Positions 39,901 to 42,900 of a stretch of DNA of 57,197 nt are shown here, one piece after another; positions within the stretch are counted from its first letter, which is position 1; each line of letters starts with the position of its first letter. Source of the DNA: Escherichia coli (GTDB lineage Bacteria > Pseudomonadota > Gammaproteobacteria > Enterobacterales > Enterobacteriaceae); NCBI RefSeq assembly GCF_003334385.1, contig NZ_QOWN01000030.1. One strand, 5' to 3'. The position numbers are program-made.

Positions 39901-42900
39901 GATGAAAACGGCGACCTCGGGCCAGTGTATGGTAAACAGTGGCGCGCCTGGCCAACGCCAGATGGTCGTCATATTGACCAGATCACTACGGTACTGAACC
40001 AGCTGAAAAACGACCCGGATTCGCGCCGCATTATTGTTTCAGCGTGGAACGTAGGCGAACTGGATAAAATGGCGCTGGCACCGTGCCATGCATTCTTCCA
40101 GTTCTATGTGGCAGACGGCAAACTCTCTTGCCAGCTTTATCAGCGCTCCTGTGACGTCTTCCTCGGCCTGCCGTTCAACATTGCCAGCTACGCGTTATTG
40201 GTGCATATGATGGCGCAGCAGTGCGATCTGGAAGTGGGTGATTTTGTCTGGACCGGTGGCGACACGCATCTGTACAGCAACCATATGGATCAAACTCATC
40301 TGCAATTAAGCCGCGAACCGCGTCCGCTGCCGAAGTTGATTATCAAACGTAAACCCGAATCCATCTTCGACTACCGTTTCGAAGACTTTGAGATTGAAGG
40401 CTACGATCCGCATCCGGGCATTAAAGCGCCGGTGGCTATCTAATTACGAAACATCCTGCCAGAGCCGACGCCAGTGTGCGTCGGTTTTTTTACCCTCCGT
40501 TAAATTCTTCGAGACGCCTTCCCGAAATTTTGCAACGTCCTGCAACGGCGTAAATAGTCCGGAAGATGCGCCGAAGAAATAGAAACTGGCCCTCGTCTTT
40601 TTTTCTCCTCGCTCCATACTGCCGGCATGAAAACACAACGTGGTTATACGCTGATTGAAACGCTGGTCGCGATGCTGATTTTGGTCATGCTAAGCGCAAG
40701 TGGACTCTATGGCTGGCAATACTGGCAGCAGTCGCAACGGCTATGGCAAACCGCCAGCCAGGCGCGGGACTATTTGCTCTATTTACGTGAAGATGCCAAC
40801 TGGCATAACCGCGACCACAGTATCAGCGTTATCAGGGAGGGGACGTTATGGTGCCTTGTGAGTTCCGCTGCTGGGGCCAATACCTGTCATGGCAGTTCAC
40901 CATTGGTCTTTGTGCCACGCTGGCCCGAAGTCGAAATGAGCGACCTGACACCTTCGCTTGCTTTCTTTGGCCTGCGCAATACCGCATGGGCCGGGCATAT
41001 TCGCTTCAAAAACTCAACGGGCGAGTGGTGGCTGGTGGTTTCGCCGTGGGGAAGACTCCGGCTTTGTCAGCAAGGAGAAACAGAAGGATGCCTGTAAAAG
41101 AGCAAGGTTTTTCTCTGCTGGAAGTGTTGATTGCTATGGCGATCAGTAGCGTATTGTTGCTGGGGGCGGCACGCTTTCTGCCTGCGTTACAGCGTGAAAG
41201 TTTAACGAGCACCCGTAAGCTGGCGCTGGAAGATGAAATCTGGCTGCGGGTATTTACCGTCGCGAAGCATCTCCAGAGGGCGGGTTATTGTCATGGCATC
41301 TGTACCGGCGAAGGGCTGGAAATTGTCGGACAGGGTGACTGTGTCATTGTGCAGTGGGATGCGAACAGTAACGGTATCTGGGATCGCGAACCGGTAAAAG
41401 AGTCCGACCAGATTGGATTTCGTCTGAAGGAGCATGTGCTGGAAACGCTACGCGGTGCGACATCCTGTGAAGGTAAGGGCTGGGATAAAGTCACTAATCC
41501 GGATGCCATCATTATCGACACTTTTCAGGTCGTACGTCAGGATGTCAGCGGCTTCTCGCCGGTGTTGACGGTTAATATGCGTGCTGCCAGTAAGTCTGAA
41601 CCGCAAACCGTGGTGAATGCCAGCTATAGCGTGACAGGATTCAACCTGTGAACCGCGAAAAGGGTGTTTCGTCACTGGCTCTGGTCCTGATGCTGCTGGT
41701 TTTGGGTAGTTTGCTATTACAAGGAATGAGCCAACAGGATCGCAGTTTTGCCTCTCGCGTGAGCATGGAAAGTCAGTCATTGCGCCGCCAGGCCATCGTT
41801 CAGTCGGCGCTGGCGTGGGGAAAAATGCACTCCTGGCAGACGCAGCCAGCAGTTCAGTGCTCGCAGTACGCTGAAACCGATGCCCAGGTTTGTTTGCGTT
41901 TACTGGCAGATAATGAAGCCTTATTGATTGCCGGTTATGAAGGCGTTTCGTTGTGGCGAACAGGCGAAGTCATTGATGGAAACATTGTTTTTTCGCCACG
42001 CGGCTGGAGCGATTTTTGTCCGCTGAAAGAGAGGGCGTTATGTCAGCTTCCCTGAAGAATCAACAAGGCTTTAGCCTGCCGGAGGTAATGTTGGCGATGG
42101 TGTTGATGGTGATGATTGTCACTGCGTTATCGGGTTTCCAGCGAACATTAATGAACAGTCTTGCCAGCAGAAACCAGTACCAACAGCTCTGGCGGCATGG
42201 CTGGCAGCAAACGCAACTGCGCGCGATTTCGCCACCTGCCAACTGGCAGGTCAACCGAATGCAGACATCGCAGGCGGGATGTGTCAGCATCAGCGTTACG
42301 CTAGTTTCACCCGGGGGCAGAGAAGGCGAGATGACCCGCCTGCATTGCCCGAATCGTCAGTAGTCAGGAGCCGCTATGTTAAGGGTCTACCATTCCAATC
42401 GTCTGGACGTGCTGGAAGCGTTGATGGAGTTTATTGTCGAACGCGAACGGCTGGACGATCCTTTCGAACCAGAGATGATTCTGGTGCAAAGTACCGGTAT
42501 GGCACAGTGGCTGCAAATGACCCTGTCGCAAAAGTTTGGTATTGCGGCAAACATTGATTTTCCGCTGCCAGCGAGCTTTATCTGGGATATGTTCGTCCGG
42601 GTGTTACCGGAAATCCCCAAAGAGAGCGCCTTTAACAAACAGAGCATGAGCTGGAAACTGATGACTCTGCTGCCGCAATTGCTGGAGCGCGAAGACTTTA
42701 CCCTGTTGCGGCATTATCTGACTGACGATAGCGACAAGCGAAAACTGTTCCAGCTTTCCTCAAAAGCGGCGGACCTGTTTGACCAGTATCTGGTTTATCG
42801 TCCGGACTGGCTGGCACAGTGGGAAACAGGACATTTGGTTGAAGGGCTGGGAGAAGCACAGGCCTGGCAAGCCCCGTTGTGGAAGGCGCTGGTGGAATAT

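Follow-up and report, generated by a model that had tools for sequence, protein, structure and literature searches.

Immediately upstream of recC in Escherichia coli lie four small, overlapping genes – ppdA, ppdB, ygdB and ppdC – whose position raises a double question: what do their products do, and does recC belong with them? Our material is a stretch of 57,197 nucleotides (contig NZ_QOWN01000030.1 of assembly GCF_003334385.1; hereafter the window), on which an earlier note had remarked a compact pseudopilin cluster, known in E. coli, cryptic in function and probably co-transcribed with recC. The arrangement has indeed been noted in the literature since 2006, and the cluster and its link to recC are already known, even textbook-adjacent. 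The description of its function as cryptic is outdated: the literature treats the genes as minor pilins, orthologues of comNOPQ, regulated by Sxy and able to prime fibre assembly. Our analysis leads us to hold with considerable confidence that the four genes are the core minor-pilin set of a chromosomal type IVa pilus with PpdD as its major pilin, and that recC has a promoter of its own.

A minor-pilin set next to recC

All four proteins are pilin-like. Each carries a class III signal peptide – a short basic leader, a glycine at position −1 and a hydrophobic helix of ~20 residues – and the Gly(−1) is invariant in 27-29 species for each of the four. PpdA, PpdB and PpdC contain the N-terminal methylation domain of prepilins (TIGR02532 / PF07963), and in these three Glu+5 is also invariant (E11, E12 and E15); YgdB matches neither TIGR02532 nor PF07963, and has alanine at +5. 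GspK-class minor pseudopilins are likewise without Glu5. Predicted models show the pilin fold, a long N-terminal alpha-helix on an antiparallel beta-sheet, and that of YgdB does so without Glu5; the earlier count of three proteins with prepilin-like N-termini is therefore borne out by the methylation domain and yet incomplete, YgdB being pilin-like as well. In PpdC the leader cleavage region reads NQQG–FSLPE, with the cut between the two halves, and the invariant residues are G10, F11, E15, C81 and C103. The cysteine pairs of the cluster pilins and the arginines of PpdA do not vary across the species aligned. Gene identities were correctly given from the outset: every product scores well beyond the cut-off against its own NCBIfam equivalog, PpdB matching NF007848 at 326 bits (plus TIGR02532) and PpdC matching NF007660 at 217 bits (also PF12528 and PF07963). 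The ppd gene names themselves go back to an older genetic observation on prepilin peptidase.

PpdA is, on its predicted model, a subunit of the GspH / FimU / FimT class: the model matches FimU, EpsH, GspH and FimT, with EpsH and GspH fitting almost as well as FimU. Its R143 and R145 correspond to the DNA-binding arginines of FimT, and PpdA / ComN has been proposed as the DNA receptor (PMC12616744). PDB sequence searches with PpdA, YgdB and PpdC returned no useful match; among the matches listed in a search for YgdB homologues, none lies beyond Citrobacter. A profile search with PpdB recovered 1197 representative clusters at E ≤ 1e-3, relatives of PpdB are recorded with PF27121, and the match between PpdB and GspJ is sub-threshold (E 2.7e-4).

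The equation of these genes with competence genes was made by Cameron and Redfield (2006), who identified them with pulG-HI0941 of Haemophilus influenzae on the grounds that four similar-sized prepilin-peptidase-dependent genes adjoin recC in both families (PMC1635313); a 2025 study reports orthology with comNOPQ, and recC adjacency across Pasteurellaceae and Enterobacteriaceae (PMC12616744). The likeness to comNOPQ (HI0938-HI0941) extends to gene order, to co-orientation directly upstream of recC, to control by Sxy and CRP-S sites, and to a first gene that encodes a FimT / GspH-like pilin (PMC1635313, PMC12616744). Sequence is another matter: similarity falls below BLAST detection, PpdA being 18% identical to ComN. 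Moreover, DNA uptake in H. influenzae has been proven to require these genes, whereas E. coli displays no natural transformation under native control. According to the passages of PMC12616744 that cite Sinha (2009) and Jaskolska & Gerdes (2015), the E. coli operon is under Sxy control, with the strongest induction at ppdA, and induction requires both Sxy and cyclic AMP (cAMP)-CRP. PpdAB-YgdB-PpdC prime assembly of PulG, the Klebsiella pseudopilus, according to the passage of PMC5131608 that cites Cisneros (2012), and the four genes serve as the minor-pilin module in reconstituted E. coli pilus-assembly plasmids (bioRxiv 856302).

Set against FimU-PilV-PilW-PilX of Pseudomonas aeruginosa and against GspH-I-J-K, the E. 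coli set differs in order (H-J-K-I, not H-I-J-K) and in the size of YgdB (135 amino acids, versus ~300 in GspK-class proteins). It stands apart from the major pilin and assembly genes, and it has no adjacent PilY1 or PilE; both are present in a cluster that houses a distant PpdB-family member. That cluster (locus L084, 3359-10597) is of the classic type IV minor-pilin kind: it has two GspH-like genes, a PpdB-like gene and genes for proteins of 300 and 112 amino acids, then, on the other strand, a ComP_DUS-like (PilE / ComP-like) pilin and PilY1. By its gene content it shows what the E. coli cluster would have lost or never possessed. A curiosity of the PpdB family is a protein of 3614 residues (P0176) in which 24 separate stretches correspond to positions 82-126 of the PpdB profile; it appears to be a giant repeat protein made of the PpdB-like beta segment.

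The arrangement is not due to chance. The 1957-bp block from the thyA stop to the recC start occurs in 5426/5426 complete E. coli genomes at no less than 97% identity, always annotated as ppdA, ppdB, ygdB, ppdC and recC, with recC annotated in all matching genomes; its identity is 100% with strain 720632 and 99.9% with a K-12 derivative. Beyond E. coli, a set of one genome per species, anchored on the RecC N-terminus, gave 80 Enterobacteriaceae loci, 79 of them with upstream sequence, in which tblastn served to project the start codons. All 79 have the order thyA-ppdA-ppdB-ygdB-ppdC-recC. Within the window the open reading frame (ORF) list and the sequence bear out the coordinates and overlaps first reported: 10 nt between ppdA and ppdB (41088-41097), where the ppdB ATG sits over the ppdA stop; 4 nt, GTGA, between ppdB and ygdB (41648-41651); and 16 nt between ygdB and ppdC (42040-42055). 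The cluster does stop 12 nt short of recC, as had been said; the end assigned to it, 42376, is in fact the first base of recC. Across species the first overlap is 10 nt (at times 7 or 13), the second 4 nt in 75/79 and the third 16 nt in 72/79, while the ppdC-recC gap is 12 nt in 69/79 and always has AGGAG or GGGAG within it, GGAG being invariant among 73 species. These junctions are near-fixed despite the divergence of the pilin proteins, whose identity outside Escherichia is 47-77%, against 91-98% for ThyA and 75-91% for RecC.

Conservation at codon positions 1 and 2 is 0.74-0.80 in all four genes, versus 0.52-0.62 at position 3, and all four frames are intact in 78/79 loci. Because the first two positions exceed the third, and because Gly−1, Glu+5 and the cysteine pairs are invariant, the cluster genes are, to judge from these patterns, functional and fast-evolving rather than decaying. 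The sole broken cluster gene in the 79 loci is ygdB of Escherichia sp. MOD1-EC7003 (L001 1156-1563), which has an in-frame stop at codon 80; this could be a genuine pseudogene or a sequencing error. Public protein sets also hold 'YgdB-PpdC fusions' of 228-237 amino acids (PF10713 + PF12528 + PF07963; P0009, P0023, P0034 and P0041) and a 'long PpdB' of 267 amino acids (P0122), the latter equal to a longer ORF running from window position 40848 to 41651. Both are probably gene-calling or frameshift artefacts of the overlapping frames.

Several loci depart from the common spacing. Farther out in Enterobacterales, ppdC and recC are separated by anything between 7 and 204 nt. On an AT-rich, Enterobacterales-like metagenome contig (L082 4483-6453; also L083) lgt-thyA-ppdA-ppdB-ygdB-ppdC is found without recC downstream, convergent ABC-2 transporter genes beginning ~490 nt after ppdC; linkage to recC is thus not universal in Enterobacterales. 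On the other side of the cluster, Kluyvera sichuanensis (L033 1432-4275) has a 2.8-kb insert between thyA and ppdA encoding, on the opposite strand, a transporter of major facilitator superfamily (MFS) type (440 amino acids) and an enolase-superfamily-like enzyme (401 amino acids), identities taken from the translations alone. Raoultella and Superficieibacter (L031, L036, L040 and L049) also have this gap widened, to 300-468 nt.

Table 1. Features between thyA and recC, in window coordinates (aa, amino acids)
Feature	Position	Strand	Description
thyA intrinsic terminator	40461-40492	+	11-bp stem, 6-nt loop, U tract; −16.6 kcal/mol, z = −3.0
Candidate CRP-S site 1	40505-40526 (core 40508-40523)	+	TTCGA-GACGCC-TTCCC; 2 mismatches; C6
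TGCAACG direct repeats	40529-40547 (40531-37, 40541-47)	+	Candidate CytR operator or −35 element CTGCAA
Candidate CRP-S-like site 2	40557-40578 (core 40560-40575)	−	TTCGG-CGCATC-TTCCG; 3 mismatches; weak alone
Conserved CATACT (CAnACT)	40615-40620	+	Exactly 6 nt before ppdA ATG; in essentially all 63 sequences
ppdA	40627-41097	+	156 aa, ATG start; GspH / FimU / FimT-class minor pilin by its model, candidate DNA-binding tip subunit
ppdB	41088-41651	+	187 aa, ATG at 41088; PpdB-family minor pilin, weakly similar to GspJ / PilW
ygdB	41648-42055	+	135 aa, GTG start; DUF2509, atypical minor pilin without Phe+1 and Glu+5, presumed GspK / PilX slot
Secondary internal promoter in ygdB	41909-41921	+	−10 GATAAT 41909-14, start 41921; ppdC-recC transcripts; not conserved across species
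ppdC	42040-42363	+	107 aa, ATG start; smallest of the minor pilins; T2SSppdC family; GspI / PilV slot presumed
recC promoter in ppdC	42262-42298	+	−35 CAGACA 42262-67, 17-nt spacer, TG 42282-83, −10 CAGCAT 42285-90, start A 42298
ppdC-recC spacer	42364-42375	+	12 nt; recC Shine-Dalgarno AGGAG at 42366-42370
recC	42376-45744	+	1122-aa ORF; RecBCD gamma subunit; downstream neighbour, outside the pilin machinery

Transcription of recC from within ppdC

A central issue is the source of recC transcription. Evidence that it lies within ppdC came from the 3′ third of that gene, where synonymous sites are abnormally conserved: the codons CAG ACA (42262-67) and TGT GTC AGC ATC (42280-91) are nucleotide-identical in 71-73 of 73 species, whereas in the region as a whole the third base is kept at 90% or more in only 10% of the codons whose residue is conserved. 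In the 2060-nt alignment of 73 species no invariant run is longer than the 11-nt TG-extended −10 element, TGTGTCAGCAT; the next-longest runs are 5-mers, one of which is AGACA at 42263-67. The conserved blocks lie 17 nt apart and the spacer between them is variable. From this conservation a recC promoter with a start near 42297 was predicted ahead of the mapped-start data, in which a recC-only operon starts at NC_000913.3 position 2962506 on the reverse strand (SMRT-Cappable-seq; Yan et al. 2018, PMC6131387 Supplementary Data 2). This position is 42298 in the window – a mapping that we checked – and leaves a 5′ untranslated region of 78 nt before the recC ATG. The recC promoter is the most conserved DNA of the region.

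A further operon start in the same data, that of b2823-b2822 (ppdC-recC) at 2962883, corresponds to window position 41921, 7 nt after the GATAAT inside ygdB; no operon start is recorded in the thyA-ppdA gap in either M9 or rich medium (PMC6131387). Since recC starts are mapped and none falls in that gap, recC expression is independent of the pilin promoter, and with independent starts at 42298 and 41921 the five genes do not make up a single transcription unit. Of the co-transcription suggested in the earlier note, part survives: no terminator is predicted, the gap of only 12 nt is too short to accommodate one and holds just a ribosome-binding site, and RegulonDB lists a ppdA-ppdB-ygdB-ppdC-recC operon. 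The two starts speak the other way, and co-transcription of recC is plausible solely as read-through under induction. A terminator together with an independent promoter between ppdC and recC had been named as the evidence that would overturn the suggestion; the promoter is mapped, inside ppdC, and the terminator was not found. A sigma-70/terminator consensus scan gave no convincing terminator between ppdA and recC, and its lone plus-strand terminator-like match, inside ppdB, is weaker than chance expectation; the scan is nonetheless too strict to rely on, for it returned zero plus-strand promoters and missed both the thyA terminator and the mapped recC promoter.

RNA structure was considered as the cause of the invariant block and is unsupported: RNAalifold on the ppdC 3′ end gave an invariant 5-bp hairpin with zero covariation, and such a structure leaves the invariant AGACA 12 nt upstream unexplained. 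Rfam has no family within 40300-42800. The metagenomic relative that lacks recC was tried as a natural control for the embedded promoter and proved too diverged. In kind, the recC promoter is an ordinary internal operon promoter – start, −35 and extended −10 lie within the preceding gene, synonymous sites are constrained, and recC is on while the pilins are silent. It differs in degree: 11 nt in a row do not vary among 73 species, in a gene that evolves fast.

The ppdA promoter region

The thyA terminator, whose stem and T-run are conserved in 63 sequences, insulates the ppd genes against lgt-thyA transcription. The lgt-thyA transcript ends at 2964312, window position 40492, and of 103 reads from the lgt start 50 stop there and 3 pass; an lgt-thyA-ppdA read-through variant is listed (PMC6131387). 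The 183-nt gap between thyA and ppdA is conserved in length, and in an alignment of 63 species its most conserved blocks past the terminator are TTCC (40519-22) and TGCAA (40541-45). The E. coli CRP-S motif is asymmetric, TGCGA-N6-TTCCA, with C or G, never T, at position 6 (PMC6728893). The first block falls within candidate site 1, whose columns over the 63 species read T[T/G]CG[A/G]-N6-TTCC, the TTCC present in 58-60 of them; as a control, the scan also picked up the sxy site of the literature, TGCGA-N6-TTCCG. The centre of candidate site 2 is 52 bp from that of site 1. In most other species the site 2 segment is CTCGT-AACGCC-TCGTA, near-identical to the CRP-S site of E. coli ppdD (TTCGT-AACGCC-TCGCA); in E. 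coli the segment could instead hold a −10 element, GAAGAT (40562-67). The symmetric consensus TGCGA-N6-TCGCA, which has no match at ≤2 mismatches in the gap, was rejected for ppdA; the asymmetric motif alone fits. There is no Shine-Dalgarno sequence before ppdA, and the conserved CATACT would fit the −10 of a leaderless ppdA mRNA, or another initiation signal. Candidate starts for ppdA are ~40574 (with −35 CTGCAA and −10 GAAGAT), ~40609 (which would put site 2 at −41.5) and 40627 (leaderless, −10 CATACT).

Between the two CRP-S-like sites lie the TGCAACG repeats, one helical turn apart, their TGCAA cores conserved in 59-63 of the 63 species and the second of them invariant at 4/5 positions. 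The CytR half-site of udp, ATTTATGCAACGCA, has TGCAACG as its core (PMC5934615), and the distance from the centre of the distal CRP-like site to TGCAACG is 25.5 bp in ppdA, in udp and in the ppdD promoter. The last of these (MG1655; L090 4051-4252, minus strand) consists of a CRP-S core, 16 nt, CTGCAACG, 12-13 nt and CGGAA-N6-TTCCC; the ppdA and ppdD promoters, as read from their sequences, look like variants of one architecture. The ppdA promoter contains the CytR pattern of TGCAAC half-sites between CRP-type sites ~52-53 bp apart, and in this it resembles the CytR/CRP promoters of udp, deoP2 and cdd (sites 52-53 bp apart, TGCAA half-sites between). It is unlike them in that its flanking sites are CRP-S-like (C6, low score) rather than canonical TGTGA.

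Two explanations of the repeats have to be weighed. It is conceivable, if rather unlikely in our estimation, that the ppdA and ppdD promoters are CytR/CRP-type nucleoprotein promoters at which CytR, and with it nucleoside availability, would gate Sxy-dependent pilus expression. There is a precedent: competence in Vibrio cholerae depends on CytR. Alternatively the repeats may be no more than a −35 region, CTGCAA, in a CRP-S promoter of class I that functions without CytR, an explanation we neither favour nor disfavour. CTGCAA begins 16 nt past the CRP-S core in both ppdA and ppdD, and 16-17 nt further on comes GAAGAT or GAATCT, both of which have A as second and T as sixth letter; TGCAAC does not occur in the promoters of sxy, hofM and smf; and a literature search turned up no paper linking CytR to the ppd genes. 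Against the −35 explanation, conservation extends to both repeats and not just to the one at −35 distance; the repeats lie a helical turn apart and each match the udp half-site core; and the layout (distal site, TGCAACG at +25.5 bp, proximal site at +52 bp) matches udp and resembles deoP2. TGCAAC as a general motif of CRP-S promoters was considered and rejected: it is found in ppdA and ppdD, ybaV has only TTGCA, and sxy, hofM and smf do not have it.

Alternative explanations and significance

How might a minor-pilin set with recC as its neighbour operate? We envisage that the ppd promoter in the thyA-ppdA gap, silent in ordinary culture, would be turned on by CRP and Sxy at one or two CRP-S-like sites, and that translational coupling would deliver the four cistrons in fixed proportion. 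Once cleaved by prepilin peptidase the four proteins would form a priming/tip complex upon which PpdD polymerises, with HofB/C, HofMNOPQ and prepilin peptidase assembling the PpdD pilus; PpdA, by virtue of its conserved arginines, would be the likely DNA-contacting subunit in DNA uptake. The recC gene is a passenger and not a member, served by its own sigma-70-type promoter in the last third of ppdC and fed in addition by the weaker start inside ygdB. As there is no terminator between the cluster and recC, the induced ppd transcript probably continues into recC.

Several points weigh against this account. Pilus assembly and natural transformation have never been shown for E. coli under native regulation (PMC3330819), and the physiological role is for this reason extrapolated from overexpression, from enterohaemorrhagic E. 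coli (EHEC) and from H. influenzae. The five-gene transcript is not seen in the SMRT-Cappable-seq long-read data set, nor is a ppdA start recorded in M9 or rich medium, the architecture of the ppdA promoter being inferred; matches with two or three mismatches, as at the two CRP-S-like sites, are expected by chance ~0.1 and ~1 times, respectively, per 183-nt gap. Finally, PpdB, YgdB and PpdC are placed in the J, K and I slots on weak scores.

Other explanations fare worse. One is that the five genes form an obligatory operon in which recC is expressed solely by read-through from the ppdA promoter. The RegulonDB operon would be in keeping with this, as would a study that treats the genes as a polycistron, and a 12-nt gap with a Shine-Dalgarno sequence only and no convincing predicted terminator; but mapped starts exist for recC alone (42298) and for ppdC-recC (41921), the former is preceded by promoter elements that are the most conserved nucleotides of the region, and in distant relatives the ppdC-recC gap is 100-204 nt and contains a TATAAT element. 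RecC, furthermore, is constitutive at few molecules per cell and is described with its own promoter (PMC6536506), whereas the ppd promoter is silent without Sxy. We consider an obligatory operon highly improbable. Nor do we give much credence to the view that the genes belong to type II secretion, as pseudopilins of a second Gsp H-J-K-I set, and not to a type IV pilus, notwithstanding the word 'pseudopilins' in the earlier note and the Pfam name 'T2SSppdC' for the PpdC family. The PpdA model does fit EpsH and GspH almost as well as FimU, and PulG, the Klebsiella pseudopilus, can be primed by all four proteins; such cross-priming, however, reflects the shared ancestry of type II secretion and type IV pilus systems, the four genes build pili together with PpdD and the Hof proteins, and distant PpdB-family members reside in classic type IV minor-pilin clusters with PilY1.

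A last explanation makes the cluster a decaying, non-functional remnant, kept solely because ppdC carries the recC promoter. That promoter could account for the retention of ppdC; it offers no explanation for keeping ppdA, ppdB and ygdB. The silence of the ppd genes in laboratory culture, and the lack of transformation or piliation in K-12 or ECOR strains, are what a remnant would display, as are fast protein evolution (47-77% identity, against 91-98% for ThyA) and the nonsense codon in ygdB of one species genome. Yet frames are intact in 78/79 species and the block is present in 5426/5426 E. coli genomes, in each of the four genes codon position 3 is far less conserved than positions 1 and 2, the residues expected of pilins (Gly−1, Glu+5, the cysteine pairs) and the PpdA arginines are invariant, and the cluster proteins are active in assembly assays. 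Decay is, on this evidence, very unlikely, and a functional minor-pilin set with an independently transcribed neighbour is the reading that we prefer.

What is added to a known locus is chiefly an embedded and extraordinarily conserved recC promoter, together with a testable CytR hypothesis for the silent pilin promoters. It is because the recC promoter is embedded in ppdC that ppdC and recC stay together in Enterobacteriaceae: any loss or relocation of ppdC would carry the promoter with it. A practical consequence is that deletion or recoding of ppdC or ygdB may lower RecBCD, and may confound the 'DNA uptake or repair' phenotypes of ppd mutants. The CytR reading, if true, would help account for the silence of the pilin genes in the laboratory and would tie E. 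coli to competence in Vibrio cholerae; the TGCAACG repeats between the CRP-S-like sites thus offer a cheap and testable idea for waking a silent pilus system.

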